Of a stretch of DNA of 64,000 nt, positions 31,527-53,353 are shown one piece after another. A program made the translations under genes and the position numbers. Numbering within the stretch: position 1 is the first letter of the stretch; each line of letters starts with the position of its first letter. The notes below the pieces were generated by a model. That model worked only from the letters and a program-made list of their open reading frames with translations, did not search any database and had not been told where the DNA came from. The stretch comes from a virus (taxonomy: Duplodnaviria > Heunggongvirae > Uroviricota > Caudoviricetes), in the IMG/VR virus record IMGVR_UViG_3300042346_001601. One strand, given 5' to 3'.

Positions 31527-31547
31527 TAGTAAATCCTTTTTTCATAA

Positions 31548-32408: not shown

Positions 32409-32422
32409 AGTTTTTTGTTTTT

Positions 32423-33257: not shown

Positions 33258-33266
33258 ATCAAAGGT

Positions 33267-33983
33267 TTATTTTGTAAGTAATTCTTTAAATCTTTTTCTT
33301 AACATTCTAACATATACATCATTGGATAGTCCGTAATTTCCGATAGCCCACATATCATTGTATTCAATAACTACGTTCTGACCCCCACTCAAAACACCTA
33401 TATCAATTGTGTAGGCCGATGGAAAAGTATTTCTATTGTTTTGGATTATTTTTTCTAAATACGAACTATCAATCGAAACATAAAGATTACCAGAGTAGTT
33501 TGCTAGATATTCAATGCGGTGATCGTTGATATAGCATCTCCATTCACTCTCAATTGGTTGATCAAAAACATCATAAACCATAACTCGTGTTTCTTCAGGA
33601 ACATTAGAAATTGATGTGTTCTGCATTTGATCAATCACAAAACCAGTGAATAATTTTATGTCAAATGGTTTTATGAAAAACTTTTGACCTAGTTGTGCTA
33701 ATCTCTTAATTTCCCCTAAGGTTTGTATGCTGTGTTTTCTATCGGAATTCATAGGTAGTCTAGGATCTTCAACACCAGCGATTTGAAACACAACTCTCAT
33801 GAACTCAACAGAACCAACAAATAAATTGTTAGATGTTACTAATTTATTAAACTTGCCGGAAATTAAATCATCATAAGTAATAAGTCTAAAGTCCTGTCCA
33901 GTATCCATAGCACCATACATAGCACAAGAAACATCAAAGTGATGTGGTAACTCTCGGTTGCTGTCTTTTTGTAAATAAATCAT
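33267..33983 (-). CDS. possible ATP-grasp-fold protein
   Basis: C-terminal VVIEYNDMWAIGNYGL resembles the ATP-grasp C-terminal strand; weak, by eye only. Confidence 0.35.
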   Translation of the reverse strand: MIYLQKDSNRELPHHFDVSCAMYGAMDTGQDFRLITYDDLISGKFNKLVTSNNLFVGSVEFMRVVFQIAGVEDPRLPMNSDRKHSIQTLGEIKRLAQLGQKFFIKPFDIKLFTGFVIDQMQNTSISNVPEETRVMVYDVFDQPIESEWRCYINDHRIEYLANYSGNLYVSIDSSYLEKIIQNNRNTFPSAYTIDIGVLSGGQNVVIEYNDMWAIGNYGLSNDVYVRMLRKRFKELLTK

Positions 33984-33990
33984 AATGGTG

Positions 33991-34000
33991 CAAATATATA
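33991..34000 (-). promoter_or_regulatory. putative promoter element (sense TATATATTTG) upstream of ORF 33267..33983
   Basis: TAnnTTTG match. Confidence 0.25.
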
Positions 34001-34079
34001 CATTTTGTAACTAAAAACAAAATTTTTTAGAAAAATTACCAACCTCAACTATTTTGAATATCTAAGAGTATAACTTTCA

Positions 34080-35156
34080 TTAAATTTTATAAAATTGGGG
34101 TTTTATTATTTTCCAAATTAATGAGGAGTATTCCTTACGATCGTACATTTTAAATAAAAGGGAAGGATTTTTGTATTTTTTTGCTTCTTCGGCAAAACTA
34201 GCTCTCCACTTGAAATCTTTTATGCTCTTGAGGGTGTCGAAGATAGCCAAATACTCCTTCTCTACCTCCTGGTATTGACTTATCAGCTCGTTGGCATATC
34301 CTGTCACCTTTCCATAAAACTCATCGGGGGTGTCGACAAGGATGGCTGACATGTCACCTCCGGTAGACAAGACCTCCCAGATCGAAGTGGAAGTAACATT
34401 TGTCATTATTCTGTGCAACCTGAGATACTCCTCAAATTTAATTTTCATCCGAAAGTTACCAGGTTGAAATCTAAGAACGAAACCCTCCTTGTTAACATCG
34501 TTCTGTGCCTTCAAACTACGGTATAACTGATCGGAAAAGTTAAAATGCTGCTTTGTTTGGGTGATGTCTTTATCAGAGACACCGTTGAACTTAAAGACAT
34601 CACAGGCCATAGACCAATGTAATTCTTCTTCGTTGGTTTGTTTGTAAAAATTATTGGGGACCGCAGATAAAAATATGACTTTTTCTTCCCCGTAATTTAC
34701 AACGATACGATTTTCCGGGTAGATGATCTCAACCAAGTACGCGTATTCTTTTATCCAACTATCCAACTTGTATTTGGATTGAACCATCTCTAATCCCTTT
34801 ATTGCCTGGTCTGAGGTAAAAGAACCCCGGGTAGCCATAATCCATTCACCCTCGTAGTAAAACAGTATGCCTAAAGAGCCATCCGCCTTTTCCTGCACAT
34901 ACACACAGTCTCCTTGGGTTGGAATTTGTCCTTTGTTCACAATTTCTTCGTAGTTGAAAAACTTTGGAAAGGGTTTAACAAGGATCCCGCCGGTAACATC
35001 ATCGGTAATAAGACCTCTACACATAAGGGTCACATCGTCCCATAATCCATCGTATTGAACCTTTTCGCTGTAGTTCCAAATTGTCAGCGGAAAGCGAGGA
35101 TGGGACTGGGAGTGGAGCAGGCCCCTTTCCTTATAATCTTCTAGTACGTTTCTCAT
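34080..35156 (-). CDS. RNA ligase, T4 Rnl1-like
   Basis: MCRGLITD / PFPKFFNYEE / VQEKADGSLGILF align with T4 Rnl1 ECRGIMFE / PMEKFFNLNE / LTKEDGSLVSTY (motif I lysine KxDGSL). Confidence 0.8.
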   Translation of the reverse strand: MRNVLEDYKERGLLHSQSHPRFPLTIWNYSEKVQYDGLWDDVTLMCRGLITDDVTGGILVKPFPKFFNYEEIVNKGQIPTQGDCVYVQEKADGSLGILFYYEGEWIMATRGSFTSDQAIKGLEMVQSKYKLDSWIKEYAYLVEIIYPENRIVVNYGEEKVIFLSAVPNNFYKQTNEEELHWSMACDVFKFNGVSDKDITQTKQHFNFSDQLYRSLKAQNDVNKEGFVLRFQPGNFRMKIKFEEYLRLHRIMTNVTSTSIWEVLSTGGDMSAILVDTPDEFYGKVTGYANELISQYQEVEKEYLAIFDTLKSIKDFKWRASFAEEAKKYKNPSLLFKMYDRKEYSSLIWKIIKPQFYKI

Positions 35157-36968: not shown

Positions 36969-37886
36969 TTAGGCGGTAGTAGATAAGTCTTTGACCTCAA
37001 TGTTTTGGGCAAAATCTAGAGCTTTTCTGGTACCCTCTCCGATAATTCCGGCATCTACATTATTTCCTGGACCCGCATTGGCATTGTTAACTGCTCTAAC
37101 TGCAGTTTTTAAATCTTGAAAATCGTTCTCGTTGGAGTTGGAATACTTCTCCTTGATAGTTGGGTTGTTCAAAGTGATCTTAAAGAAGAGGGCTGCTACT
37201 TCGGCGGCAATTTTTGAATTCTTTTCTAAAGTTTCAGGATTAGCTACTAGATCAACATTAGTTCCAGCTTTTTTGAGTAAGTCTGTGTATACTCGGTAGT
37301 TTGCTTTCCCTGTGAGCCCGTTGTATCCTCTACCTCGATATTTCCAGCCGTCACCTGGCTGATCGTTGCCTAGATCCTTACCCGTACTAGTTGGACAATC
37401 TACGCCGTATACTCTATCCCAGAATTTAGCATCATCCTTTCTTAATTCTTCAATCTGAGCATCTGTTAGATCCTTGACCCTCCGTCCGAAAACATCTCTA
37501 ATCCTACTAGCCGGTGTGTTTCTATAAGAAATTTCAGCAACGCTGGGGTTGAACCCGCTTTCTTTATTCACAACTCCCAAGACCGCTCTTTGGACGTAAG
37601 GGTTTGTGAGACCGTGTTTATTGAGAGCTTCTACGAGCTCTTGCATTGCCTGCTTTTGATTAGCAGGGGCACTGGGCAGAATTAATTCTCCCGATACAGG
37701 AGATTCAGTATCAGAAGCTTTAGAAGCTGAAACTAATCCCGAATCGGAAGTGATGGTGGATCCAAAAGAGCTTCTAATTTCGGAATCCATCCATTTGTCA
37801 AAAGATTCCTTCCCCCTCTCTGAGTTCGATTTTGGTGTATTTTCATACAAGTCCCTAAAAGATTTGAGATATTTCATTTTTTTCAT
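36969..37886 (-). CDS. peptidoglycan hydrolase, GH19/lysozyme-like (putative endolysin or virion lysin)
   Basis: ...GVVNKESGFNPS...YRN...RDVFGRR...DGWKYRGRGYNGLTGKANY resembles GH19 catalytic region (YYGRGPIQL.WNYNY). Confidence 0.5.
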   Translation of the reverse strand: MKKMKYLKSFRDLYENTPKSNSERGKESFDKWMDSEIRSSFGSTITSDSGLVSASKASDTESPVSGELILPSAPANQKQAMQELVEALNKHGLTNPYVQRAVLGVVNKESGFNPSVAEISYRNTPASRIRDVFGRRVKDLTDAQIEELRKDDAKFWDRVYGVDCPTSTGKDLGNDQPGDGWKYRGRGYNGLTGKANYRVYTDLLKKAGTNVDLVANPETLEKNSKIAAEVAALFFKITLNNPTIKEKYSNSNENDFQDLKTAVRAVNNANAGPGNNVDAGIIGEGTRKALDFAQNIEVKDLSTTA

Positions 37887-39194: not shown

Positions 39195-40730
39195 TTAAAC
39201 TGAGGCAACAAAAGTTATTTTCATGCCTTCGGAGGGATGAATCAGATAGGCTTGAAGAGCTCTATTGGATCCTTCAAACCCGTGTTGGTGATGCCATCTA
39301 TCAGAACCAGACAGACTCGGCATTTGATAAACCTTCACCCCATTGAAGTCCTTCACCATCTCATGATGCAGGTGTCCAGTAAAGAAGAATCTGTGTTTGG
39401 TTCTGGACCAAAAATCAGGAGCTTCTCTGGCCATAAGGTAAGGAAGCTCTGAAAGTTTGGTTCCGTCACCGTGCGTGAATCCCATGAGATTTTCACCGTA
39501 TTCGTAGTACTGACGGAATTTATGACATTTAATCACCTCTACATCTTCACAGCTCCTATAATAGGCTCCCAAATACTCCAAAAGAACATGAGAAAGTTTG
39601 AAGTCGTGATTGCCCGCAGTTAATAAAATCTCAACGGGAGCCACCCCTCTCAGGATATCGATGAATTCTACCATCAGTTGCTGGCCCTCCACCATGATCT
39701 GGATAAAAGTACCATCGCAGTCCTGAGGTGTGCCTTTGGTCGTGGTTCCACCGAGGGTATCAACATGAAAAAAATCGGATCCTACAGGAATAATAATTTT
39801 CTCAATCTGATACTTAACAACATCGGACAAGATGGAGGCAGTTTTTCCGAGTAATAAATCCCGGGCCATTTGACGGTTGTATTCATCCCTCACCTCTCCT
39901 GACCAGGCATATTTCCCGTAGTGCAGATCAAAGGGAGAAATAACGAGGGAATGAGGTTCTCCGGGAGGCAGGGTCAATTTAGGAACCTCGTACTGGGCAA
40001 AAACCTGGGATAATTTTTCGGCCAAAGGATTGATAACCAGACCCTTAAAAGCCCACCAATTTGAGGCTGCCTCTTTGATCATTTTTTCCTCTTGCCGGGT
40101 GTATTTCTGGAAGAATGAAAATTTTCTTTTTTGTAGAGCATCTGAAACCATCTCTTCCTCGTCTCGGACGAACATTTCTTCGTCGGTATAGGGTTCGGAG
40201 TCGTGGGTCCAGCCCAGAATAGATTTAAGGGCGGTAAATATGTTTCTAGGTATTTCGAAATTCCGACAGATTTCGTTGATGGTTTCTGCACTGCCGGTCA
40301 GAGAAGAATAACGGGATTTCATGTCCCTAATGATGGTGCCGGTAAATCGATAGGCTTTGTTCTTGATGTACACTATATAGAGATCTTTTGCCTCATCATA
40401 GTAGTAGTTGGTGTTGTGCTTGTATTTTTTGTAGGCAGACCGGGCTATTTTTTCCTCCTCTTTGTCGATTTCTAATTCCATAGAAGGAGGAATTTCCTCC
40501 TGCCTGAATTTTTCCTCGATCGATTGTCTTAGAACATCTTCCGGTAATTCTTCTGACAGCTTGGCAGAGATTGCTCTTCTAAAAGAATCAATGGCCGAAG
40601 TGCCCAGATTTAGAAATTTTTCGGAAACCAATTTTTTGGCTATCTCAGTATGAGAAAAACCTTGACCGTGTAAAGACCAGATTTCCTCTGAGAATTTTTC
40701 GGCTAGGTCCTTGAGTGAAATTTGACTCAT
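39195..40730 (-). CDS. large metallophosphoesterase (calcineurin-like/Mre11-SbcD-like motifs in C-terminal half) with N-terminal HTH-like region
   Basis: ISPFDLHYG, VGSDFFHVD, TAGNHDF, GHLHHE motif series; N-terminal GFSHTEIAKKL helix-turn-helix-like. Confidence 0.6.
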   Translation of the reverse strand: MSQISLKDLAEKFSEEIWSLHGQGFSHTEIAKKLVSEKFLNLGTSAIDSFRRAISAKLSEELPEDVLRQSIEEKFRQEEIPPSMELEIDKEEEKIARSAYKKYKHNTNYYYDEAKDLYIVYIKNKAYRFTGTIIRDMKSRYSSLTGSAETINEICRNFEIPRNIFTALKSILGWTHDSEPYTDEEMFVRDEEEMVSDALQKRKFSFFQKYTRQEEKMIKEAASNWWAFKGLVINPLAEKLSQVFAQYEVPKLTLPPGEPHSLVISPFDLHYGKYAWSGEVRDEYNRQMARDLLLGKTASILSDVVKYQIEKIIIPVGSDFFHVDTLGGTTTKGTPQDCDGTFIQIMVEGQQLMVEFIDILRGVAPVEILLTAGNHDFKLSHVLLEYLGAYYRSCEDVEVIKCHKFRQYYEYGENLMGFTHGDGTKLSELPYLMAREAPDFWSRTKHRFFFTGHLHHEMVKDFNGVKVYQMPSLSGSDRWHHQHGFEGSNRALQAYLIHPSEGMKITFVASV

Positions 40731-40784: not shown

Positions 40785-41057
40785 TTATTTCTCGGTTTTT
40801 GATTCTTTGGTCAAGGTTAAAATTTGACTGAGTAGAATATCTTTCTCCAGCTTGGCGAAAAAGTTTGTGATGTACTGACATTTTTCATACTCCTCTGTCG
40901 ACTCATAGTATCTCAACAAACTAGCTTTAATGTCTTCTCTCTTTTCGAGAAGATGAGGATGGTTAATGGCGCTGCTGCCCATTTTTTCCATTCTAGATAA
41001 GGCTTTTTCGTACACCTTACGCTCTATCCTCGGTTCGGTTTTCAAATTCTGAATCAT
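40785..41057 (-). CDS. hypothetical protein
   Basis: 90-aa ORF. Confidence 0.35.
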   Translation of the reverse strand: MIQNLKTEPRIERKVYEKALSRMEKMGSSAINHPHLLEKREDIKASLLRYYESTEEYEKCQYITNFFAKLEKDILLSQILTLTKESKTEK

Positions 41058-41259
41058 TTTTTTTCAGTTTAGACTGGGTGCGCTCTACTGGGTGGATCTG
41101 ATGAAGATCCATACATTTTTCATATTCCTCGAAATCTTCTAAAACTTTAATACATTCTTCCCGCTGGGAAAAGGCAAGACTTTTCTCGCCAAATTTTACG
41201 ATGTCACTATAGACTTCTAAAGCCCTATTCAATCGGTCTATATTCTGATGATTTTTCAT
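41017..41259 (-). CDS. hypothetical protein
   Basis: 80-aa ORF. Confidence 0.35.
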   Translation of the reverse strand: MKNHQNIDRLNRALEVYSDIVKFGEKSLAFSQREECIKVLEDFEEYEKCMDLHQIHPVERTQSKLKKNDSEFENRTEDRA

Positions 41260-41554
41260 TTCTGATTCAGAAGTATATATGTTTTGACCAGAATGAATTT
41301 TCTGAGTTTAAAGTGCAAAAGACAATTTACAGCAATCTTTCTTGCCAGAATTTTTTAGGTCAGAAATTGAAAGCTATCCGGCGATTTTTGAAAGGGCACT
41401 CCAAAAGAGCCTGGAGCATTATATTCCACCAGTAACTCCACTTTCCCTTCATTATTTTTAAGTACATTCAATACCTTGACAGTTTTTTGGGAAGATTTCT
41501 CTCTTAAGATGTCACCCTTTTCTATTCTCATATCGTTCAAGTAGTGTGAACTGA

Positions 41555-41866
41555 TTAGTCTAAATCCTGAGTTTTCCATTTTTTTAGAAGTTGTAAAGTT
41601 TTTTTTATTTGCCCACACGCCTCGTAATTTTCAGTCCTTTCGTTCCAGAGTTGGCAGTTGACAAGGAATTTTTCATAGTCTTTTTTCTCAATGATTACGG
41701 AATAGCTGGGACCATCCGTGTTGAAATCTTGACCCATCGTAAAAAGAACTGCGAAATTATACCTTTGTTCTACAGCTTCGGTAATCTTTTCACGGAAGAG
41801 TTCCCAAAATCTGTCTTTATCTTTGAACTGAAGTGCTTCTTTGAACGGCGGGTGGGAATCGTACAT
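41555..41866 (-). CDS. hypothetical protein
   Basis: 103-aa ORF. Confidence 0.4.
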   Translation of the reverse strand: MYDSHPPFKEALQFKDKDRFWELFREKITEAVEQRYNFAVLFTMGQDFNTDGPSYSVIIEKKDYEKFLVNCQLWNERTENYEACGQIKKTLQLLKKWKTQDLD

Positions 41867-41875: not shown

Positions 41876-42928
41876 TTATTCTAATTCCTCGAGAGAGTTG
41901 GAGAGATATTTGGTGATTTTATAAGGATCCGCATTTGATCCTGGTCTCCTGTCTTCAAGATAACCCAACCACTTATCAGAGGTAGAAATGGGTATTCTGA
42001 TTGATGCTCCTCTATCACTTACACCCCAACTGAATTTCGAAATGCTTTGGGTTTCGTGCTTGCCGGTAAGTCTCAGATGATTGTCCGATCCATAGAGGGA
42101 AATAGCAACATCGTGGGTTTTTTCCAGCACTTGACAAATGCTGTTAAAAAATTCTTCCCCTCCTGTTTCTCTCATTCTATTATTTGAAAAATTGGTGTGC
42201 ATTCCTGATCCGTTCCAATCTTCCTCTGCTCCCATGGGCTTGGGGTGAAAGTCAACTTTGATCTGGTAATTTTCTGCAATTCTCATGAGCAAAAATCTAG
42301 ATATCCAAAGATCATCTGCGGCCGTCTGTTCTCCCTGGCCAAAAACCTGATATTCCCACTGACCGAGCATCACTTCGGCATTGGTGCCTGTGATCTGAAT
42401 GCCACAAGAAAGACAGGCATCCAAATGTTCCTCTGAAATATTTCTGCCAGCGGAATAAGGATGACCGACTGAACAATAATACTTGCCCTGAGACTCGGGT
42501 GGGTTGAAATTTTCAAATCCTACCGGCCGATTACTATTTTTATTGAACCACCTGAGCACATACTCTTGCTCAAACCCAAACCAAAGAGCATGAGAATCCT
42601 TTCCGATCAAGGCTCTAGTATTGGAAGAATGTGGGGTGCGGTCTGGATTTAGAACCTCACACATTACGAGATAGCAAAAGCCCATTCTGAGAGGATCTGC
42701 ATAAACCCTCACTGGTTTTAGAATCAAATCTGAGAAATTACCTTCAGCCTGCCGGGTGGAACTTCCATCAAAAGACCATTCTGGAAGTTCTTCTGGTCTA
42801 GGTTTTGCGTGTTGGGGCGAAAGAGTGTTCAGATTTGACGGGGTATAATCGAAAATCTTTACTTTTGATCTCAAATTTGGTTCGGGTTGATATCCATCTA
42901 ACCAAACATACTCCAATTTTAATTTCAT
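41876..42928 (-). CDS. glnII: glutamine synthetase, type II (eukaryote-like GSII)
   Basis: Near-collinear with eukaryotic GSII: YVWLDG, LPEWSFDGSST, FGFEQEY, YYCSVG, ITGTNAEVMLGQWEYQ, KPMGAEEDWNGSGMHTNFS, SIRIP, YLEDRRPGSNADPY. Confidence 0.9.
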   Translation of the reverse strand: MKLKLEYVWLDGYQPEPNLRSKVKIFDYTPSNLNTLSPQHAKPRPEELPEWSFDGSSTRQAEGNFSDLILKPVRVYADPLRMGFCYLVMCEVLNPDRTPHSSNTRALIGKDSHALWFGFEQEYVLRWFNKNSNRPVGFENFNPPESQGKYYCSVGHPYSAGRNISEEHLDACLSCGIQITGTNAEVMLGQWEYQVFGQGEQTAADDLWISRFLLMRIAENYQIKVDFHPKPMGAEEDWNGSGMHTNFSNNRMRETGGEEFFNSICQVLEKTHDVAISLYGSDNHLRLTGKHETQSISKFSWGVSDRGASIRIPISTSDKWLGYLEDRRPGSNADPYKITKYLSNSLEELE

Positions 42929-43020: not shown

Positions 43021-43206
43021 TTATTTAGATTGGAGGCTCGAGAAAGTCTTTTTGAACTCTTCAAACTTCATGAGCTTACCAACCGTGGCCTGCTTCATAC
43101 CCAGAGAGCCAACTTTCGAACTGTAAGCCCTTTGATCGTACCACTTGACGAAATTATCGTCGGTGGTGTGTTTAGGGTCTGGAGCAACTGTTTGTGGATT
43201 TGACAT
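43021..43206 (-). CDS. hypothetical protein
   Basis: 61-aa ORF. Confidence 0.35.
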   Translation of the reverse strand: MSNPQTVAPDPKHTTDDNFVKWYDQRAYSSKVGSLGMKQATVGKLMKFEEFKKTFSSLQSK

Positions 43207-43215
43207 GGTGTTTTT

Positions 43216-43617
43216 TTAATTTGTATCAGATAGGAAAAAGATTTTTGCTAAAATCCCAACCAAAGTGGTGAAAAAGATCCACATAGCTTTGGTGATCCCC
43301 CCTTTCCACTTCATGAGGTCAGAGTGTTCTAGTAAGAGGTTCCGGTATTCAACCTCATCTTTCTCCTTCTGTCTCTGTTGTTCTAGTCTGAATTTGGTGT
43401 TTTCGTTTACTTTGACGATCACACCATCATCTGGATCCAGAAGTTTTTTCTTTAGCTCCGAGAGATCTTTTTTCATTTCAGACTGAGCTGCTTTGAGTTC
43501 CTCCATGCTGATCTGGATGATCCTTAGATCGTGGCCTGGAGATCTTTCCCTCATAGAGTTTAATTCATCCTGTAAAACCTCCCTGATGATCTCTGAAATC
43601 GGTTTTTGAGTTTCCAT
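43216..43617 (-). CDS. hypothetical coiled-coil protein with C-terminal TM helix
   Basis: 133 aa; C-terminal MWIFFTTLVGILAKIFFL. Confidence 0.45.
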   Translation of the reverse strand: METQKPISEIIREVLQDELNSMRERSPGHDLRIIQISMEELKAAQSEMKKDLSELKKKLLDPDDGVIVKVNENTKFRLEQQRQKEKDEVEYRNLLLEHSDLMKWKGGITKAMWIFFTTLVGILAKIFFLSDTN

Positions 43618-43652
43618 AACTGAGATTATATATCTGCATCAGGACTCATTTT

Positions 43653-43859
43653 TTACTGGATTTCCTTGTTCCAGTGAACTTTTATGTCGGGAATTAGAAT
43701 AAAATCATCAACGTAGATAGGTAGACTTTCTAGTAAAAAAAAACTATAAAATCCTTCTTCATCAAATTTGTTTTCTAAGATTTCAACCTTATGAAGATTA
43801 ATAAGGGAACAAACTTCCAGATGTGTTCTGGGCGAGGTGGTAAGAATCTTAATCTTCAA
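43653..43859 (-). CDS. hypothetical protein
   Basis: 68-aa ORF. Confidence 0.35.
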   Translation of the reverse strand: MKIKILTTSPRTHLEVCSLINLHKVEILENKFDEEGFYSFFLLESLPIYVDDFILIPDIKVHWNKEIQ

Positions 43860-44130
43860 CTTCTGGCTCTCCTAAAATTGATTTTGTAACGGGATCAATG
43901 GACATGATAAAGTATTCGGAGGTGGATTTTTTTTCAACCACAACTTGAACGGGACTGGTACTACCCCGAAGACAGTATTTTTCACCTTCCAATAGAAATT
44001 CTTGATCTAAGTGTTCTGGCAAGAGTTTGGATCTTCGAATCCACTTGTTTTGATTTCTGACGTATTGTTCCTGATAATGTTTCATCAGAGAATCCTCTGG
44101 CTTTCTGATTCTTTTAGGGGGGATTTGCAT
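43849..44130 (-). CDS. hypothetical protein
   Basis: 93-aa ORF. Confidence 0.4.
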   Translation of the reverse strand: MQIPPKRIRKPEDSLMKHYQEQYVRNQNKWIRRSKLLPEHLDQEFLLEGEKYCLRGSTSPVQVVVEKKSTSEYFIMSIDPVTKSILGEPEVED

Positions 44131-44141: not shown

Positions 44142-44876
44142 TTAAAATTTTTCGGACGATAATTTCATGCTCATTAGGTCATCTAAAATAGGACCCATAA
44201 GGTAATACTCTGCTGAAGGTTGGCCCTTATCACAAACTCCAGGCTGGGAATACCAGTGGACGTTATAGTGATAATGATTGTGAACTTTGCTGCTCATTCT
44301 TTTAGACCCTTCAACCTCGTTTGTCCAGGGATCTTCTCCATCAACAATGTTTTGGATTAAGTACTCTCTATTCCAGATAGTTGCATTATGAGAGTGGAGA
44401 TAATTTTCTCCTTGACTGTGCTTCATGATCCTAACCTTGTTAATGACGTAAGGGGTAGGATCTAGGCGGTAGGCATCGTAATAGTGTAATTTGGTGTGAA
44501 TCTTGATGGATTCCGCCTTTTGGACTTCTGCGAACAGCAAAAGTTGTTCTAAAACGGGATAGGGAAAAGAAGATTTTAGCCACATATCTTCCTGGAGATA
44601 AATGATCCATTTTGAGGTAATTTCGGATAAGGTTTTTTTCATTCTGGTGGAAAATCCATTTTTATCCGTCTTTCCGGTCAAAATGCTTTGCATCGCGGAG
44701 TTAGGCTTGAAGAGGTGACCCCTGCACGAAAGTTCAAAATCCTTGACATTCCGTTCTTCGGATGCCCAATAAACAGGGATTTTTTCAAAATCCCAGTACA
44801 GGTCTAAGGAATACAACATACCAAACCAAAACTGATGGTACGAATCACACGTGTGAACAACCAAAGAAAGATCCAT
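44142..44876 (-). CDS. hypothetical protein (first gene of glycan cluster)
   Basis: 244-aa ORF. Confidence 0.45.
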   Translation of the reverse strand: MDLSLVVHTCDSYHQFWFGMLYSLDLYWDFEKIPVYWASEERNVKDFELSCRGHLFKPNSAMQSILTGKTDKNGFSTRMKKTLSEITSKWIIYLQEDMWLKSSFPYPVLEQLLLFAEVQKAESIKIHTKLHYYDAYRLDPTPYVINKVRIMKHSQGENYLHSHNATIWNREYLIQNIVDGEDPWTNEVEGSKRMSSKVHNHYHYNVHWYSQPGVCDKGQPSAEYYLMGPILDDLMSMKLSSEKF

Positions 44877-44877
44877 G

Positions 44878-45879
44878 TTATAAAGTGTTAAAATAATTAG
44901 ATTGCTGGAGATGTTTCAAATAATCTAAAATTTTCAGAAATTCTTCCGGTCTTTTCTCGCCGTGGAGAACCTTGATGTCCCTTTTAGAAGGAGGAATTCT
45001 ATAAAAATTAAGAGAATAGTCCTTATTTTCCTCCGACATCCAGGTGGAAAATCCTGGATGTCCCTCTTCATAAAAATGACAAACCGTGTTGATCCCATCT
45101 CTTAAATTTATATAGCATAGTGGAAATCCTTCGTTGGTTTTTTTCCACGATAAAACGTTGTAGATTGTCTCTTCGTGAAAAGCGGCAACCCTAGATAAAC
45201 TAATTTTCAATTTGGGAAGCAGAAAACAGAATTCCCTCCATGTTTTAACAAAATTCAAACAAGATGAATTACAGAGTATAACGTTGGTTGTTCTGTAGGT
45301 TCCCCTAGATTCCGCAGGCATTTCTAAAAATTGCATTAAAGGCCATTCTAGGGTTTTGGTTAAATCGGCCTTTGGCCAGCACCCTTCAAATGGATTTCCT
45401 CTTTCAAACCCATTTGGCTCGACTATGATCATATATTGATGAATGCCCTCCGTGCAAACTGGGTAGTCTTTTACGATGGGCATCCAATCGAACATTTCGT
45501 CGATTATAGGAGAAGCTATACAATCCGAATCTAAGTAGCAGAGCTCTTCGAAACCTTCTTCTAAAGCCAGCTGCATAGCCATAGTCTTAGCACATAAAAT
45601 TTTATAAATTTTTGGATTTTCTCTGGTAACGTAAAAATTACCATTAGCTTGATGAGTAAAATTATCTAGGTAGTCTTCATCCAGTTCTAGATCTAAATTT
45701 CTAAAGATAACTTTTTCCAGTCCTTTAAAGAAAAGGGACGCATCAGGAGAGCAATTTACACCGCAAACAATAATAGGAAATTTAGAGAAGAGTTCTATAC
45801 TTGTAGCTAAATTTTTGGCTATGTCTAGATAATTTTCAGTGGCATGTGTAATAAAAGCTCTTTTCATACAAATTCCCAT
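44878..45879 (-). CDS. possible GT-A fold glycosyltransferase
   Basis: N-terminal Rossmann-like FITHATENYLDIA... and DxD-like YLDSDCIA. Confidence 0.4.
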   Translation of the reverse strand: MGICMKRAFITHATENYLDIAKNLATSIELFSKFPIIVCGVNCSPDASLFFKGLEKVIFRNLDLELDEDYLDNFTHQANGNFYVTRENPKIYKILCAKTMAMQLALEEGFEELCYLDSDCIASPIIDEMFDWMPIVKDYPVCTEGIHQYMIIVEPNGFERGNPFEGCWPKADLTKTLEWPLMQFLEMPAESRGTYRTTNVILCNSSCLNFVKTWREFCFLLPKLKISLSRVAAFHEETIYNVLSWKKTNEGFPLCYINLRDGINTVCHFYEEGHPGFSTWMSEENKDYSLNFYRIPPSKRDIKVLHGEKRPEEFLKILDYLKHLQQSNYFNTL

Positions 45880-46790
45880 CCTCCTCCTGGAAACTTTTCG
45901 GCTTGATCCAAAACGTCAAAAATTTTACCATTTCTCCAAAACTCGAATTTTTGTAAACTAGGATCAATCTCAAATTGTTGGAACTCTGATATTGTCATCT
46001 TTTGGATATCGTTATCCTTTCTTATAAAGATTTCCAAGGGTTGTTTCACATCGTAAACCAAACAGTGTTGGGGATCTGCGGTGCCAACATTTTTGGAGAA
46101 ATAAATTTTGAATTCCTGCCAGGGAGAATAATTGTAAAAATCTTCGTGCCAATTACGAAAAGTGTAAATATGATCTTCGATAATAAAATCCCTGTTAATT
46201 GAAACATTAATTTTTTGGGCAAGATCTGCCCAAAAGTGTTCCGCACAATCAAACTCCAAACATCTTTCCCAAATAAATTCAGATTCTAGATTTTCTAATT
46301 TTGATTGTGAGACGGAAAAAAATTGGGAAGCACAATCATTAATTAATTTTTTTCCATTTTCGGTTGTTCTAAAAGCAAAAAAAGATTCTTGGTTTTTGTA
46401 TTTGATGAAATTTAAAATTTGATTATCGATGACCAAATCATATAGCATAAAATAATTCATGTCATAATTTAGAATCCTTGCAAGTTGAACTAATTTCAGA
46501 ACCTGAGAAAACCCAGCAAAACGGTTATTTCTCCAAAATCTGTAAAATTTAATTTTTTTCGCTCCAAAAAATTCTTCTTTCCAAAAAAGGTTAGAAGAAT
46601 CCTCTTTTAATGGGTTATTTGGGTTGAAAAAATAAAAATCAACTAAGTTTAGAATGTCTCTTTCCAGATGAATAGACGAATAAAGCAAAATAGATGTGTC
46701 TATTTGCCTTAAAAGTTCCAAATTAATTTTTAGAACTTTTCTTTTTTCTTCTGAATCACAATGAGAACTAATTAAAACTAATTTTTTCAT
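45864..46790 (-). CDS. uncharacterised family protein (paralog 1 of 3 in cluster)
   Basis: N-terminus KKLVLISSHCDSEEKRKVLKINLELL...SIHLERDILNLVDFYFFNPNN aligns with N-termini of 49799..50920 and 56003..56983. Confidence 0.45.
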   Translation of the reverse strand: MKKLVLISSHCDSEEKRKVLKINLELLRQIDTSILLYSSIHLERDILNLVDFYFFNPNNPLKEDSSNLFWKEEFFGAKKIKFYRFWRNNRFAGFSQVLKLVQLARILNYDMNYFMLYDLVIDNQILNFIKYKNQESFFAFRTTENGKKLINDCASQFFSVSQSKLENLESEFIWERCLEFDCAEHFWADLAQKINVSINRDFIIEDHIYTFRNWHEDFYNYSPWQEFKIYFSKNVGTADPQHCLVYDVKQPLEIFIRKDNDIQKMTISEFQQFEIDPSLQKFEFWRNGKIFDVLDQAEKFPGGGWEFV

Positions 46791-46797
46791 AATTCTT

Positions 46798-47439
46798 TTA
46801 AAAATTAATTTTTTTTAAATATCCATTTGGATTAAAAGTGACATTGTAACCATAAAAATCACACCATTTTCTATCTATTTCGAATTGTGGATTTTGTGGT
46901 AAAAATTCTTCTATCGCTCTAAGAGGACCTCCGTCATAGTTTTTTTCGATGCCCATCCAATTCACAGTTCCGTCTTCAACGATCATATAGGAATCTTCGC
47001 TGATTAAATCTTTGAATTTATTCATCACAGACAAAACATCGTTATAGTTGTGTGACCCATCTTCAATCAACATAATTTTTTTAAATGAGGATGCATAATC
47101 CAAGTTGTATTCTTGATAACCTCCCAAGAATCTCTGAATTCTTGGATGTCGATTAATCAAACCCCTCTTTTCTTCGGAATTTGATAAAAAAGTTTCATCC
47201 TGAATATCCACAGTATGAACCATACCTTTACCTATATTATTTAAAATATCACCCAAATACAGACACGATCCTCCATAATTAGTCCCTATTTCTATTATCA
47301 AATCGGGTCTTATTTCATTAATTATCATTTGATACATTACGTAATCAAATGGGGATTTTTCAGTTATAATTCCTCTATATAAAGTTTTTAGATGTCCATC
47401 CATGATACCATCTAAATTTAAGTTGTATGAATTGTTCAT
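46798..47439 (-). CDS. class I SAM-dependent methyltransferase, CmcI/rhamnosyl-O-methyltransferase-like
   Basis: DLIIEIGTNYGGSCLYL motif I; MVHTVDIQDE; family architecture of CmcI-type sugar O-MTases. Confidence 0.55.
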   Translation of the reverse strand: MNNSYNLNLDGIMDGHLKTLYRGIITEKSPFDYVMYQMIINEIRPDLIIEIGTNYGGSCLYLGDILNNIGKGMVHTVDIQDETFLSNSEEKRGLINRHPRIQRFLGGYQEYNLDYASSFKKIMLIEDGSHNYNDVLSVMNKFKDLISEDSYMIVEDGTVNWMGIEKNYDGGPLRAIEEFLPQNPQFEIDRKWCDFYGYNVTFNPNGYLKKINF

Positions 47440-47449
47440 TTTTTTTATT

Positions 47450-47854
47450 TTAAAGATCCACTCTCATAGTATTGCACTCCCTGAAAAATCCACATCTTTC
47501 ATAGAAATTAATTCTCTCATCGAAACAGGATAGAATAACCTTATAACATCCAAGATCCCTGGCTTTTTCCAAAGCTTTTTGAACCAATAAAAAACCAATT
47601 TTATTACCTCTAAATTTTTCTTTCACCGCCACATCTTCAATGAATCCTGCTAACCCGCCATTTCGGATTAATTTTCTTTGGAGATGGAGTGTAATTGTTC
47701 CTATGATTTCTTGTTCTTCAACCGCAACAAAATTGTAATTATTTGTCATCCATTCAGATAAAACGTTTTCTTGTATTTCTGTGATGTACCAGGTCTCCTT
47801 CAAGATTTCCAGTAATCCAGCTTCATCTCCCTTCTGAAATTCGCGAATGGTCAT
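47450..47854 (-). CDS. GNAT family N-acetyltransferase
   Basis: motif A VAVKEKFRGNKIGFLLVQKALEKA (Q/R-x-x-G-x-G/A). Confidence 0.8.
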   Translation of the reverse strand: MTIREFQKGDEAGLLEILKETWYITEIQENVLSEWMTNNYNFVAVEEQEIIGTITLHLQRKLIRNGGLAGFIEDVAVKEKFRGNKIGFLLVQKALEKARDLGCYKVILSCFDERINFYERCGFFRECNTMRVDL

Positions 47855-47859
47855 AAATG

Positions 47860-49020
47860 TTATTTTTGTGATTCGATAACGTTTTGAATCACAAATTCAA
47901 TATCATCATCGGTTAAAAATAAATGTAAAGGTAAACTAATAATTTTCTCGCTCAGGTTCAATGAATTCGGATTCAACCCAAATTGTGATTTGTACATATC
48001 ATAATGGGTATTATCACGATAATGAACTCCTGGATATATCCCACGAATATTTAAAAATTCCATAGTTTTGTTTCTTTCTTCCACAACAATTTGATACAAA
48101 TGCCTAGAAGAAAGTTCTGTGTACGGAGAAACTTTAACTGACTGGATGCCTGCAGATTGAAATGACTTTTCATACATTTGGCAGATTTCTCTTCTTCTGG
48201 TGTTATCCTCTTCAAGATATTTCAAACCAACTAAAGCCATCGAAGCCATCATAGAATTACCATGATATTTGAAACCAACATCAACGAGATCATATTCCCA
48301 TTTATAACTTCCTTTGTCGTGTGATCTTTGGTAAGTGTCTTTAGAAATTCCAAGCCAAGATAATTTTCTGGCTAATACGTCATAATCTTCATTCTTGAAA
48401 CAGATCATTCCCGAATCTGCGGTCGGAAGATTTTTGACCGCCTGAAAACTAAAAATAGAAACATCAGCATCTAAACCAACATGATCTTTCGAGTAACCAA
48501 CACCAACCTCTGTTTTGTTTTTTATCCAGGTTCCAGCCATATGTGCGGCATCTAAAATAATTTTAAGGCCTTTGCGTTGGCAAAAATTTACTATTTCATC
48601 GAACCTCCCGGCATTACCCCCAATTCCCACAAATAAAACAGCTTTGGTTTTTTTGGTGATTTTTGATTCTACTGATTTTGGATCCAGACATAGAAATTCA
48701 TCTACGTCTGCAAAGATTGGTCTCAGTCTTTCGTACATTATTGCGTGATTTGAAGACACAAAAGTTAAGGGGGACGTGATAATCTCGTCTCCTTCTTTCC
48801 ATTTATTGGCGTCTTTTAAAATTTTTAAGGCAAGATGCAAACCAGAGGTGTTCGAATTTAGAAAATGCGCATGCTTAAATCCGGTGTATTTTTTCCATTC
48901 TTCTTCAATCTGCTGAGTTTTAAAACCTAAACCTGTCCATCCTATTTCCATACACTCTTGCATATGTTCCCAGATTTCTGATGTTCTGAACTTAGGTTTG
49001 AATAATTGAATATTTTTCAT
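47860..49020 (-). CDS. DegT/DnrJ/EryC1/StrS-family PLP-dependent sugar aminotransferase
   Basis: 386 aa; DAAHMAG...; PLP-lysine context SIFSFQAVKNL; overall collinearity with ArnB/FdtB-type enzymes. Confidence 0.85.
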   Translation of the reverse strand: MKNIQLFKPKFRTSEIWEHMQECMEIGWTGLGFKTQQIEEEWKKYTGFKHAHFLNSNTSGLHLALKILKDANKWKEGDEIITSPLTFVSSNHAIMYERLRPIFADVDEFLCLDPKSVESKITKKTKAVLFVGIGGNAGRFDEIVNFCQRKGLKIILDAAHMAGTWIKNKTEVGVGYSKDHVGLDADVSIFSFQAVKNLPTADSGMICFKNEDYDVLARKLSWLGISKDTYQRSHDKGSYKWEYDLVDVGFKYHGNSMMASMALVGLKYLEEDNTRRREICQMYEKSFQSAGIQSVKVSPYTELSSRHLYQIVVEERNKTMEFLNIRGIYPGVHYRDNTHYDMYKSQFGLNPNSLNLSEKIISLPLHLFLTDDDIEFVIQNVIESQK

Positions 49021-49031
49021 TCTTAAAAAAT

Positions 49032-49802
49032 TTAAAAATTATGAAATTTTTGATTGAAAATCGATTTAATTTCATCTAAATCTTTTTCTGTTATTTCAGT
49101 TTGAGCTTTAGATGACATTGAATCTTCTTTTTTTTCATAAACAAATGATGGATAATCAAGATATCCTATTCTACCGCGAAGAGATAATTCAAAATTGGTA
49201 GCCCAATCTATGAAATGCTTATTTTTAACATAACTTAAATCAATGTCAGTGAAATTTCTAAAAAATCTTGATGATGAGTAGCACAAGTTACTATGATGTA
49301 AAAGTTTTTTGTCAATTTCTCCGTCACTAATTGGATGTAAAACGGAGTTATACTCTGTCATAGCAGCAATCCAAAAGCTCCCATCCGCCGAGGGAACCAA
49401 TTTTCTTCCTTCACTAATCAAATATCCAGTGCTAACGAGAGAAAAATCAGGATTATTTTCTAAAAAATCAAATTGTTTTTTTAGTTTATATGGATCTATC
49501 CAATAATCATCTGGGTCTATATAAGCAACATAAGAAGTTGAACAATTTTTGAGAAGAAAAATAACGGTTTCTATAAATCCTTTGTTTTCTTTATTGGAAA
49601 ATATCGAAATTTTAAAATTTTCGTTTTCAAAATTTTTTAATCTGTGTAAAATAGCCAGACTTTGATCTGTAGAACAGTCATCGCAGGCTATAAAATGAAT
49701 ATTGCAGTCGATTTTTTGCACGTAAACGGAAAAAAAAGCACGATCTAAAAAATAAGCATAATTGTAGACCGGCATTATAACACTTATTTCTTTTCTTTTC
49801 AT
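49032..49802 (-). CDS. glycosyltransferase family 2
   Basis: ISVIMPVYNYAYFLDRAFFSV...IACDDCSTDQS...YIDPDDYW (DxD). Confidence 0.8.
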   Translation of the reverse strand: MKRKEISVIMPVYNYAYFLDRAFFSVYVQKIDCNIHFIACDDCSTDQSLAILHRLKNFENENFKISIFSNKENKGFIETVIFLLKNCSTSYVAYIDPDDYWIDPYKLKKQFDFLENNPDFSLVSTGYLISEGRKLVPSADGSFWIAAMTEYNSVLHPISDGEIDKKLLHHSNLCYSSSRFFRNFTDIDLSYVKNKHFIDWATNFELSLRGRIGYLDYPSFVYEKKEDSMSSKAQTEITEKDLDEIKSIFNQKFHNF

Positions 49803-50920
49803 TCGATTTTATAGTAATTTTTTACCAAAGCATATTTAGACAAGTTTTCTCTTTTAATTTTTATAGAATCTGTGAATTGACATGTTTCATCTTCTATATT
49901 ATGTAATTTTTTTGTGAAAACTACAGAGTCCCCATCTACAAACAAATCATTCAATTTTTCTTTGTACCACCCTCCCTTTCCTAGAATTATTTCGCGATGG
50001 AAAATTTCTTCTGAATTTTCAGTAATAATCTTAATGGAGAAGCTGACTTCATTACAAGGGCAACCTGGTTCAACATTTAAAAGTAAATAACAATCCGATA
50101 GATCTTCCTTCCAGAATAGTGAAGAAGTTGTGGTGAAATGTAAAGCGCTTGGCCCAGGTTTTATGATCGAACTTACTGTATTCCAATTTCCGAATCCGAA
50201 AAATTTATCCATCTCGGAATGTTCATCAACTAGATTATTATCCCCGCCAAAAAGTTTTAGCATCACATCTTCAAGACCACAATTGGGAAAAATCTTTTGA
50301 AAATTGGAATTATCCGAAAAATCGAGATTTGGAATTTTTTGAATCAAACTTTCGTCCAAAGTAAACCCAAAAAGGTGTGGGCAATACCAGCTACTAAAAT
50401 TTGGATTATTTTTTATAAAGTAATTTTTGTGCTCCCCTAAATTCGAAAAAATTTCAGAGAATTTTTGTTGAATATTATCCGGACATTTGAAATCTCCAAC
50501 AAAATAAAAGGCAAATTCATATCCCTTTGACCACAAAAATTTAATCGAATTAACAAATTGGGAGACAATGGAAACCGACCAACCGGTAACAACCAAATGG
50601 TCTCTAAACATTTCATTTCCTATTTGAATGTATTTCAGGTAAACTGGATTTTGTATTCCCTCTAGATTGTAATTTAGAATGTCTGAATCAAGGAAATGAT
50701 AATTGTTTTTCCTTTCAAAAATAAAATAAGTAGTGTTTTCAATAATCTCGGGAGTACATGGATGGTGGCTAGTTAAAAGAACGTCTATCTCATTTTGTTG
50801 AAAAATTTTTAGATTGGCCAGAAGAATTTCTTGTTCCTCCGTGGTTTGGGGATATGCATCTATGATGACACAGAACTTTTTATCTGATATTTTTTCTCCT
50901 ATTAAATTATCAGAATTCAT
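49799..50920 (-). CDS. uncharacterised family protein (paralog 2 of 3)
   Basis: N-terminus KKFCVIIDAYPQTTEEQEILLANLKIF...TSHHPCTPEIIENTTYFIFERKNN. Confidence 0.45.
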   Translation of the reverse strand: MNSDNLIGEKISDKKFCVIIDAYPQTTEEQEILLANLKIFQQNEIDVLLTSHHPCTPEIIENTTYFIFERKNNYHFLDSDILNYNLEGIQNPVYLKYIQIGNEMFRDHLVVTGWSVSIVSQFVNSIKFLWSKGYEFAFYFVGDFKCPDNIQQKFSEIFSNLGEHKNYFIKNNPNFSSWYCPHLFGFTLDESLIQKIPNLDFSDNSNFQKIFPNCGLEDVMLKLFGGDNNLVDEHSEMDKFFGFGNWNTVSSIIKPGPSALHFTTTSSLFWKEDLSDCYLLLNVEPGCPCNEVSFSIKIITENSEEIFHREIILGKGGWYKEKLNDLFVDGDSVVFTKKLHNIEDETCQFTDSIKIKRENLSKYALVKNYYKIE

Positions 50921-50921
50921 G

Positions 50922-51851
50922 CTAAGACAAGATCTTTTTATTCTGCCAAGCCCAGATCATATTTCCAGTGTGGTGTGTTTGAAATCCATTTTCTGAAAAG
51001 ATAAGCAATAATTGATCCGGAGGATGAATATGATATTCCAAAACTATCTTTGGTATAGACTTTAAAAATTCAGAGCTCATGTTTGGAAAAATTTCCCATT
51101 CACCTCCCTCGCAGTCTATTTTTAAAAAATCTATTTTTACCTCATTTTCTTTTGCCCATTCTTCCAGGACAACTCCTTGACAAAAAACACTTTCATCGGT
51201 GTGATCGAACGAAACAGAAACTGAATTCAAAACACTTGACTCATGAATATTTAGTTTCAAATCCTTTTTTTCCGACCACACAGCTAAATTGTGGACATGA
51301 ATTGGCAAATCACCGAAGTTTGTTTGAATAAAACTTGATAGCTTGGGGTCTGGTTCAAACGAGTGAACTTGTGCAGCTCCTTTTGTAATCGAAAAAAAGG
51401 AAAAGAAACCGATGTTTGCCCCAATATCAACAACAACATCTCCAGGTTCCACTTTACAATGTTCGTGGTTGTATTCCCCACTTAAAAAAATCTCCCAAAG
51501 TACAAGCCCTGTTACTAAGTCTTTTTTTGAAAGATTACTTCCTATATTTTTCAACCTGTTCTTTGGGTCCAAATTTCTTATATCATGCCTAAAAGTATCT
51601 GAGTAATCACAAACTTCGAGTAGGATTTCTCCAGTTTGCAAATCCTCTACTACAAAAGTGATAAATTTTGTGATTCTACCGCTATATGCTACCCAGTATG
51701 AACATTTGGGAAAAACATTAATTATGTCACCCCAATAACACAATCTTGTGTGAGAATCTATAAACTTAATTACAATTTCCCTTTCCTCGTCAAAATGACT
51801 GGTAAAGTCTATCCCGTTTCTATCCGGTAAAATGTGATTTAGAGAGATCAT
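50922..51851 (-). CDS. FkbM-family methyltransferase
   Basis: VVDIGANIGFFSFFSITKGAAQVHSFEPDPK matches FkbM (Methyltransf_21) signature. Confidence 0.7.
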   Translation of the reverse strand: MISLNHILPDRNGIDFTSHFDEEREIVIKFIDSHTRLCYWGDIINVFPKCSYWVAYSGRITKFITFVVEDLQTGEILLEVCDYSDTFRHDIRNLDPKNRLKNIGSNLSKKDLVTGLVLWEIFLSGEYNHEHCKVEPGDVVVDIGANIGFFSFFSITKGAAQVHSFEPDPKLSSFIQTNFGDLPIHVHNLAVWSEKKDLKLNIHESSVLNSVSVSFDHTDESVFCQGVVLEEWAKENEVKIDFLKIDCEGGEWEIFPNMSSEFLKSIPKIVLEYHIHPPDQLLLIFSENGFQTHHTGNMIWAWQNKKILS

Positions 51852-51858
51852 AATTTTT

Positions 51859-52635: not shown

Positions 52636-52695
52636 TGGGATGAATTTTCAAATTATACGGCCTAATCTGAATTAGTTTTCGATGGATTTTAAGTT

Positions 52696-53328: not shown

Positions 53329-53353
53329 AAGTTCAAATTTGTAAATTAATCAC

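Follow-up and report, generated by a model that had tools for sequence, protein, structure and literature searches.

A type II glutamine synthetase gene in the DNA of a probable Bacteroidota jumbo phage

The viral record IMGVR_UViG_3300042346_001601, a stretch of 64,000 nucleotides whose full length is referred to as the window, contains an open reading frame (ORF) for a glutamine synthetase (GS) of 350 amino acids, which is read from ATG to stop on the minus strand. In a first-pass annotation the gene was taken for a eukaryote-like type II glutamine synthetase (GSII) serving a phage as an auxiliary metabolic gene (AMG). The locus raises the question whether the gene encodes an intact enzyme, whether it truly belongs to a phage and what a phage may gain from it. 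As judged from sequence comparisons, it is likely that the gene encodes a catalytically competent GSII and has a stable place in the genome of a jumbo phage, which measures at least 267 kb and probably infects Bacteroidota.

Class, active site and fold of the enzyme

The assignment of the GS protein to class GSII is based on profile scores, matches to solved structures, active-site residues and the fold of a structural model. Both Pfam domains of the family were detected above their cut-offs (Table 1), and the GlnII model NF041605 was the best NCBIfam model (350 bits, E 1e-104) with a lead of about 300 bits. A sequence search of the Protein Data Bank (PDB) revealed exclusively GSII enzymes among the top 16 matches (E 1e-75 to 1e-84), while GSI enzymes gave E values of 1e-7 or worse. 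The best match was the GSII of Streptomyces coelicolor (4BAX, E 1.5e-84), whose residues 3-331 aligned with residues 2-343 of the GS protein, followed by plant, yeast, Drosophila and mammalian GSII. The two-domain protein of 350 amino acids fits the GSII chain length of approximately 330-380 amino acids; chains of GSI and GSIII comprise about 470 and 730 amino acids, respectively. With the two Pfam domains, GlnII as the best model and an end-to-end alignment with GSII structures, the earlier claim that the gene encodes a full-length GSII was borne out. Other identities were considered and rejected by NCBIfam profile scores, namely GSI (TIGR00653, 53 bits compared to a cut-off of 429), GSIII (TIGR03105, 27 bits compared to a cut-off of 470) and gamma-glutamyl-polyamine synthetase.

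The active site was mapped by a HMMER alignment of the GS protein to maize GS1a (2D3A). The active-site positions of the maize enzyme are those established by plant and human structures, and the residue types found there agreed with the numbering. Residues D56, E129, E131, Y158, E192 and E199 of maize correspond to D54, E120, E122, Y151, E185 and E192 of the GS protein, N244, G245, G247, H249 and S253 to N239, G240, G242, H244 and S248, and R291, E297, R311, R316, E330 and R332 to R286, E292, R306, R311, E325 and R327. The 17 residues checked, which belong to the metal, ATP, glutamate and ammonium sites, were all identical in the GS protein, and each position was invariant across the five tabulated groups (259 relatives and five solved GSII, taken from an alignment of 292 sequences). 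The six metal ligands (E120, E122, E185, E192, H244 and E325) were all present and invariant. Substrate and transition-state residues were likewise kept, comprising D54, S57, Y151 (the tyrosine of the ammonium site), E292 (flap) and R286, R306, R311 and R327, the four arginines which by mapping to maize GS bind glutamate and phosphate. The segment D54-G-S-S-T58 was invariant at every position (D54, G55, S56, S57, T58); by homology, it would provide the aspartate and the serine of the ammonium site to the active site of the neighbouring subunit. Across the alignment, 111 columns show at least 97% conservation outside the clade of the GS protein, which retained 108 of them.

An AlphaFold model of the monomer, based on 34 homologues, reached a predicted template modelling score (pTM) of 0.86 and a mean predicted local distance difference test value (pLDDT) of 82. 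In Foldseek comparisons with 4BAX and with structures of GSII from human, maize, yeast and other sources, it yielded template modelling (TM) scores of 0.80-0.86 (0.85 for 4BAX).

Within this conserved framework, an expanded surface loop was identified in the N-domain, between strand 2 and the LPxW strand, which in the model forms a surface coil with lower pLDDT. The spacing between the motifs RSK and W.[FY]DGSS was mostly 26-30 residues (median 28) in the clade to which the window GS belongs (clade A, see below), 29-30 in a marine group designated P0054 and 16 to 29 (mode 26) in another clade (clade B). Of the 81 genome copies, 69 have a spacing of 18 residues (range 16-22), and the solved GSII that match the motifs have 16. 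The expanded loop appears to be typical of the virus-associated clades. An insertion of two residues was found in the ATP-binding signature loop, where the alignments with 4BAX and plant GS have a gap opposite 'GAEE'. Clade B proteins possess, in addition, a C-terminal extension of 20-60 residues.

Relatives, synteny and selection

Thousands of GS homologues were found in a collection of 5.8 billion proteins, the best 120 being 56-98% identical, and at least 593 IMG/VR contigs encode GS relatives. Among 50,697 GenBank phage records, a GSII was detected only in LR756501, LR756503, LR756502 and LR745206. The UniProt-derived viral structure set (BFVD) contained no phage GSII, the best TM score being 0.37. 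Cellular sequences were sampled by scanning one genome per GTDB species with exact 8-residue patterns from the query and by keeping the 80 best matches. These originated mostly from Bacteroidota, mainly Saprospiraceae besides Cyclobacteriaceae, Flavobacteriales and Chitinophagales, and otherwise from a few other phyla. Three of them were checked and represent genuine chromosomal genes because they reside on contigs of 0.5-7.9 Mb and are flanked by cellular genes (BamA, Lhr helicase, NamZ, aldehyde dehydrogenase, TonB-dependent receptor, sulfatase and solute symporter).

In a neighbour-joining tree (292 sequences, 331 columns, Kimura distances, 100 bootstraps), the window GS fell into clade A, the 56 members of which (bootstrap 92) are exclusively metagenomic and IMG/VR sequences. 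Clade B (114 members, bootstrap 92) and the marine P0054 group (10 members, bootstrap 100) are also devoid of any GTDB genome sequence. The window GS is 66-98% identical to clade A members, 57-64% to clade B, 54-64% (median 60%) to the genome copies and 45-49% to Streptomyces, yeast and plant GSII; none of the GTDB species representatives from the pattern scan exceeded approximately 64%. Given the higher identity to chromosomal GSII of Bacteroidota than to the plant, yeast and Streptomyces enzymes, the label 'eukaryote-like' in the first-pass annotation is not supported. By its sequence, the GS appears nearest to bacterial, Bacteroidota-type GSII, and the label is only a historical name of the class. 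The expectation that a Bacteroidetes host would use GSIII is not supported either for the Bacteroidota groups with chromosomal GSII, since most of the 80 closest GTDB matches are Bacteroidota, chiefly Saprospiraceae, and the three that were checked are chromosomal. In part of the Bacteroidota, GSII thus ranks as a normal enzyme, and these copies are the likely source pool of the phage GS.

Some loci carry two GSII genes. On the 24.5 kb IMG/VR contig 3300020183_000447 (L007), a clade A gene (positions 10001-11059) and a clade B gene (from approximately 18157 onward) lie about 7 kb apart. Adjacent pairs within the fetched locus were also seen in L113, L132 and L163, which are metagenome-assembled genomes (MAGs) of Saprospiraceae/Bacteroidota, and in L155 (Roseibacillus). 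Furthermore, GSII genes with 56-58% identity to that of the phage were binned to the Candidate Phyla Radiation (CPR) in L121 and L156 (Patescibacteria and Paceibacterota MAG contigs) and L165. They branch near the viral clades without bootstrap support, and over 5 kb on each side, these loci have no other gene in common with the window. Either mis-binning of phage contigs or genuine transfer could account for them.

The GS gene is embedded in a conserved gene block. In the window, it is preceded by three small unknown ORFs (61, 133 and 93 amino acids) and directly followed by four others, beyond which a gene for an SbcD/gp47-like DNA repair exonuclease serves as phage anchor of the block. The same organization was encountered in clade A loci (L005-L012 and L177): homologues of the three upstream ORFs stand beside GS in the same order (35-64% identity), four ORFs follow downstream and, in loci that have them, the exonuclease gene and three further genes come after these. 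The block genes in these loci have diverged about as much as GS itself (30-77% identity). In tblastn searches, the exonuclease was most similar to genes of a 309 kb Tunturiibacter phage and of Flavobacterium and Cellulophaga phages. Searching IMG/VR with the single exonuclease sequence recovered one locus, an alignment-based query six; their exonucleases are 70-77% identical, and GS occupies the same position in all six. The GS position was kept in all syntenic relatives examined, the GS proteins of which are 64-73% identical. None of the 80 GTDB loci had a non-GS gene in common with the window.

Compared to a 98%-identical copy (L173), the window gene exhibits 31 synonymous and 8 non-synonymous differences, corresponding to a ratio of non-synonymous to synonymous substitution rates (dN/dS) of 0.06, a value that rests on this one close pair. 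Synonymous sites were saturated in comparisons with relatives whose GS protein is 64-70% identical. The gene is under strong purifying selection. Because of a clade confined to viral and metagenomic sequences, the syntenic neighbours and the low dN/dS, GS appears to be an old, vertically inherited and constrained gene of the phage lineage, and neither a host island nor a recent pickup. The first-pass annotation had named a position inside the host clade with identical neighbours as the outcome that would speak for host DNA; instead, the gene branched outside the host clades and has syntenic phage neighbours.

The phage genome around the gene

The window is an array of mostly short ORFs with a GC content of approximately 36%, nearly all of which are located on the minus strand (Table 1). 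It contains a large set of RNA-repair genes spanning positions 19190-35156 on the minus strand. Beyond the window, the same 118 kb contig of the Joint Genome Institute (JGI) harbors genes for PolB, a topoisomerase IV-type subunit and an ATP-grasp protein, and beyond the window start (L171), for an Mtd_N protein, a peptidoglycan (PG)-binding/GH19 endolysin-like protein, LysM and YkuD. The Mtd_N protein suggests the target of a diversity-generating retroelement. With RNA ligases, the exonuclease, homing endonucleases, tmRNA, PolB and GH19 on both sides of GS, the phage-like block postulated in the first-pass annotation was confirmed. An identical GS protein is encoded on 25 contigs, the longest of which comprises 267,006 bp, and relatives were found on a 219 kb IMG/VR contig and on a JGI contig of approximately 400 kb. 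In about 85 kb around GS, neither ribosomal nor other cellular housekeeping genes were seen. A megablast search with 24 kb around GS against the 50,697 phage records gave zero matches, so close relatives, whether cultured or deposited, are lacking among them.

The assignment to a phage is based on gene content, IMG/VR membership of the syntenic relatives and genome architecture. A giant-virus origin was considered and rejected, because a bacterial host is indicated by the tmRNA, by genes directed at peptidoglycan and by matches in PHROG. This host probably belongs to the Bacteroidota, to judge from an exonuclease that resembles those of phages of Flavobacterium and Cellulophaga and from the nearest cellular GS, both of which are indirect indications. 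The Bacteroidota -7 promoter motif TAnnTTTG was not enriched in the window (79 observed, 81 expected), and scans for sigma-70-like promoters and terminators around GS gave no more than shuffled sequences.

Some features of the window are unrelated to GS. The tmRNA has a likely tag frame ending with GENPFFALAGLGSAEPVEVALAA and a stop. A second RNA element of 132 nucleotides could represent a tRNA with an intron, or it might have matched by chance. ARAGORN called neither a tRNA nor a tmRNA in the window, though Rfam gave the tmRNA and the marginal tRNA. The thymidylate synthase gene thyA is split by a 323-amino-acid homing endonuclease ORF, and both ThyA parts match one continuous ORF in L008, L010 and L049. 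No group I intron was detected in the split gene with Rfam, neither at the gathering threshold nor in a permissive scan of positions 5200-6700, and the arrangement can be read as an intron or as a gene split by a homing endonuclease.

Table 1. Features of the window; positions refer to the 64,000-nucleotide stretch
Feature	Position	Strand	Basis or remark
Type II glutamine synthetase (GSII) gene	41876-42928	-	Pfam, NCBIfam and PDB matches, model, dN/dS
N-terminal beta-grasp domain, Gln-synt_N PF03951, amino acids 5-95	42644-42916	-	Pfam, above cut-off
Catalytic domain, Gln-synt_C PF00120, amino acids 115-336	41921-42586	-	Pfam, above cut-off
Expanded N-domain surface loop, approximately amino acids 28-47, between strand 2 and LPxW strand	42788-42847	-	Motif spacing, model
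ATP-binding signature loop P229-K-P-M-G-A-E-E-D-W-N-G-S-G-M-H-T-N-F-S248 with 2-residue insertion	42185-42244	-	Alignments
Three small unknown ORFs upstream of GS	43021-44130	-	Syntenic homologues
Four small unknown ORFs directly downstream of GS	40785-41866	-	Syntenic in relatives
SbcD/gp47-like DNA repair exonuclease	39195-40730	-	phrog_704, E 1e-61
'Glycan cluster': two GT2, FkbM-type and CmcI-type methyltransferases, DegT aminotransferase, GNAT, unknowns	44142-54206	-	
Second, divergent ThyA-superfamily protein	51859-52635	-	phrog_160, E 9e-26; below cut-off in Pfam
Endonuclease_NS nuclease	53619-54206	-	
Tad3-family (anti-defence) protein	2735-3304	-	
Second homing endonuclease	4004-4573	-	
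Split thymidylate synthase (N-terminal part 6454-6771, C-terminal part 4645-5445)	4645-6771	-	
Homing endonuclease ORF (323 amino acids) between the ThyA parts	5438-6409	-	phrog_3339 / DUF7487
RpiB	16716-17156	-	
AAA_33 kinase	19190-19573	-	RNA-repair set
HAD_PNKP	19592-20047	-	RNA-repair set
Rnl2/PHA02142-type RNA ligase	22265-23335	-	RNA-repair set
Two cREC_REC proteins	23619-24068, 27968-28417	-	
Marginal tRNA match (132 nucleotides)	24099-24230	-	Rfam, 31.5 bits (cut-off 29)
Metallophosphoesterase	29340-30059	-	RNA-repair set
HAD_SAK_2	32610-33257	-	RNA-repair set
R2K ATP-grasp	33267-33983	-	RNA-repair set
T4 Rnl1-like RNA ligase	34080-35156	-	RNA-repair set
Endolysin-like protein	36969-37886		
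tmRNA (RF00023)	57505-57944	-	Rfam, 72 bits
ClpB-like ATPase	58049-60514		
Thioredoxin homologue	62691-63008	-	20 kb from GS gene

Role in infection, alternative explanations and known systems

As an intact GSII that is constrained by selection, flanked on both sides by phage genes for tens of kb and accompanied by syntenic relatives in IMG/VR, the gene qualifies as an AMG candidate, as had been supposed in the first-pass annotation. Probably an ancestor of the phage lineage long ago captured a bacterial GSII, most likely of the Bacteroidota type, which has since been kept as a stable gene. In the infected cell, the enzyme would presumably adopt the double-pentamer assembly usual for GSII and convert glutamate and ammonium into glutamine at the expense of ATP, independently of the regulated GS that the host itself has. 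The synthesis of purines, pyrimidines, nicotinamide adenine dinucleotide (NAD) and amino sugars draws its nitrogen from glutamine, and a supply by the phage could sustain these amidotransferase steps for the replication of a very large genome. Glutamine would keep coming while the host has turned down its GS or ceased to express it. A phage with its own, probably unregulated GS could maintain the glutamine supply in a nitrogen-limited or shut-down host, which is relevant for understanding how large aquatic phages affect nitrogen flow. The genes for ThyA, RpiB and thioredoxin in the window fit this theme of nucleotide supply in a circumstantial way. In clade B, genes for DUF3310, thioredoxin and glutaredoxin follow approximately 0.2-0.8 kb after GS in 19-36 loci (e.g. 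L018, L025, L039, L053 and L063), the numbers for thioredoxin and glutaredoxin being 19-25. Rewiring of host nitrogen assimilation, as envisaged in the first-pass annotation, is plausible, and it has been proposed for phage GS before (10.1101/2025.02.27.640493; PMC12619734).

A much more far-reaching, and rather doubtful, idea is that the viral GSII (clade A, clade B and the marine P0054 group) are old virus-specific lineages which have been tuned outside host nitrogen control, are tied to nucleotide supply or even to DNA hypermodification, and might have been vehicles of GSII transfer between bacteria and eukaryotes. The expanded N-domain loop would be the mark of these lineages, together with the ATP-loop insertion in many clade A copies; the tie to nucleotide supply would show in the thioredoxin and glutaredoxin neighbours of clade B and in ThyA and RpiB of the window, that to hypermodification in the nearby ThyA-like hydroxymethylase and transferase cluster. 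Lateral transfers of GSII between these domains have long been debated.

One suggestion of the first-pass annotation could not be upheld, namely that the glutamine feeds the glycan cluster, which begins approximately 1 kb from the GS gene and is bounded by the ThyA-like protein and the nuclease. In P0002, an 89%-identical relative, the cluster beside GS differs by an epimerase and another methyltransferase; in L005, L011 and L012, it is absent near GS, and no glutamine amidotransferase was annotated in about 85 kb around GS. Among the genes of the cluster, none could be identified with a step that depends on glutamine. A conserved functional link between GS and the cluster was rejected since the composition of the cluster varies among GS-carrying relatives. 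DegT-type aminotransferases generally take glutamate, not glutamine. The divergent ThyA-superfamily protein is 67-93% identical in relatives. The cluster may be a module for DNA pyrimidine hydroxymethylation/glycosylation rather than a pathway for a cell-surface glycan.

Several findings weigh against the interpretation of the gene as a catalytically competent GSII at home in a Bacteroidota jumbo phage. Its GlnII score of 350 bits is below the equivalog cut-off of 500 bits, a threshold that serves automatic naming and not the definition of the class; the score marks the protein as a divergent GSII. Two PROSITE-style patterns for GS, similar to PS00180 and PS00181, were both narrowly missed: F65 occupies one degenerate position of the first pattern, and on account of the 2-residue insertion, KP and NG are separated by six instead of three to five residues in the second. 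The first pattern was also missed by many cellular and viral GSII of the set, the second by 35 of 56 clade A sequences, whereas it was matched by every sequence of the other groups. The catalytic residues are untouched by either mismatch. Thus, the earlier statement that all catalytic signatures are present is correct for the active-site residues (17 of 17) but not for the two PROSITE-type patterns. Regulation or kinetics could be altered by the insertions that are peculiar to the clade and lie near the N-domain and ATP loops. In the distance-based tree, the branching of clades A and B relative to the cellular sequences had bootstrap values of 23 or less, and the exact-pattern scan biases the cellular sample toward query-like sequences. 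Capsid, portal, terminase and tail genes were not seen in the approximately 85 kb inspected, the host assignment is of the indirect kind mentioned above, and with no amidotransferase annotated nearby, the destination of the glutamine is purely conjectural.

Some of these findings could be accommodated by other explanations. The protein might be a neofunctionalised amidoligase which uses the GSII scaffold for another amine or carboxylate, possibly in a step of DNA-base or sugar modification within the adjacent cluster. The proximity of GS to a modification-type cluster that ends in the divergent ThyA-superfamily protein and a nuclease, the insertions in the two loops and the score below the GlnII cut-off would suit such an enzyme, and GS-like amidoligases are known in phages (BFVD entries named 'Amidoligase enzyme'). 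This explanation is nevertheless very unlikely, since the ammonium, glutamate, metal and ATP-site residues, including D54, S57, Y151, E185 and E292, are all invariant, chromosomal GSII share 54-64% identity with the protein, the cluster is not conserved together with GS across relatives, and the amidoligases known from phages superpose poorly on the model (TM 0.37 or less). The protein might also act mainly as a regulator or decoy, e.g. one that titrates GS-binding nitrogen-regulatory proteins of the host. A loop expansion on the protein surface is common to the viral clades, and GS acts in some bacteria as a moonlighting partner of regulators; strict conservation of the active site in all viral copies, however, argues for catalysis as the selected function, and no candidate partner is encoded nearby, which makes this explanation highly improbable.

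On the other hand, the enzyme could be genuine but without importance for infection, a passenger gene (moron) derived from the host. Accessory genes are numerous in phages this large, and with 42.5%, the GC content of the GS gene somewhat exceeds the mean of the window (36%). A passenger is nonetheless very unlikely in view of a gene whose position was kept in all syntenic relatives examined, whose dN/dS is 0.06, whose homologues occur on at least 593 IMG/VR contigs and whose phage relatives are 66-98% identical, compared to at most about 64% for GTDB representatives of the pattern scan. Finally, the stretch itself could be non-viral, i.e. an island of a bacterial genome, an element of plasmid type or host DNA that was mis-assembled or mis-binned with phage DNA, with GS as a host gene. 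That capsid, portal, terminase and tail genes were not seen in the 85 kb inspected and that cellular-type genes (ClpB-like ATPase, GS, RpiB and tmRNA) are present would agree with this. Yet the content is that of large lytic phages (T4-type RNA ligases, PNKP, split ThyA, PolB, topoisomerase subunit, phrog_704, Tad3 and GH19/PG-binding proteins), short unknown ORFs form long one-strand arrays, the same sequence recurs in many independent assemblies, and syntenic relatives are catalogued in IMG/VR while none of the 80 GTDB loci shares a gene other than GS. A non-viral origin is extremely improbable.

The interpretation as a GSII of a jumbo phage can be compared with several known systems. According to the passages on GS in recent surveys, 248 GS genes occur in 247 of 7,295 huge phages, mostly from freshwater and marine habitats, for which the same role in nitrogen supply was proposed (10.1101/2025.02.27.640493), and GS was found in 9 of 25 moraphages, which are jumbo phages with genomes of 200-307 kb and hosts predicted to be Bacteroidota (PMC12619734). 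In a 2026 study, the glnA genes of large phages cluster with homologues from prokaryotes (PMC13172472), and glnA is listed among jumbo-phage AMGs (PMC13037316). What the window phage has in common with these phages is an aquatic-type genome of more than 200 kb, a probable Bacteroidota host and the interpretation of GS as a nitrogen AMG; GS type, active-site conservation, synteny and selection are not given in the surveys' passages on GS. With the moraphages, the agreement is confined to the size class (at least 267 kb), GS and the probable Bacteroidota host; the window itself contains none of the hallmark genes (TerL, MCP and PolB) by which moraphages are placed in trees. The window phage possesses RNA-repair genes and a tmRNA, whereas the terms 'tmRNA', 'RNA ligase' and 'thymidylate' do not appear in the text of the moraphage paper (PMC12619734). 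In full-text literature searches, no paper turned up in which a phage GS was characterised biochemically or in which viral copies were typed as GSII, and phage GSII appears to be without biochemical characterisation so far.

The huge phages of the Al-Shayeb type (LR756501 and LR756503 with 735 kb, LR756502 with 642 kb and LR745206 with 635 kb) also encode full-length GSII. Their proteins are 49-59% identical to the window GS (44-56% in the search of the GenBank phage records), lie outside its clade and have an unexpanded N-domain loop of 15-17 residues, and of the neighbouring genes, one weak methyltransferase match is all that is shared with the window. The chromosomal GSII of Bacteroidota (MAGs of Saprospiraceae, Cyclobacteriaceae and Flavobacteriales) are the closest cellular relatives, belong to the same length class and have identical catalytic residues. 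What separates them from the window GS is a short N-domain loop, cellular flanks and a position outside the 56-member viral clade. The solved enzymes of Streptomyces (4BAX), maize (2D3A), yeast (3FKY) and human (2OJW/2QC8) have the fold, the two domains and the metal, ATP and glutamate ligands in common with the window GS. It is 45-49% identical to Streptomyces and eukaryotic GSII and differs by an N-domain loop that is 12 residues longer and by the 2-residue insertion in the KP...NGxG segment. The GS-like amidoligases of phages (Iyer et al. 2009, as cited in PMC7824862), members of the COOH-NH2 ligase family, have a distantly related catalytic fold with TM scores of 0.37 or less and 9-15% identity to the model; the window GS is a canonical GSII and not a member of this group. 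Since GS genes in huge and jumbo phages are already known from reports of 2025-2026, the general picture is unchanged by the case described here. What it adds is the typing of the enzyme as a GSII closest to that of Bacteroidota, its membership in a virus-only clade, evidence from synteny and selection, and the loop insertions.

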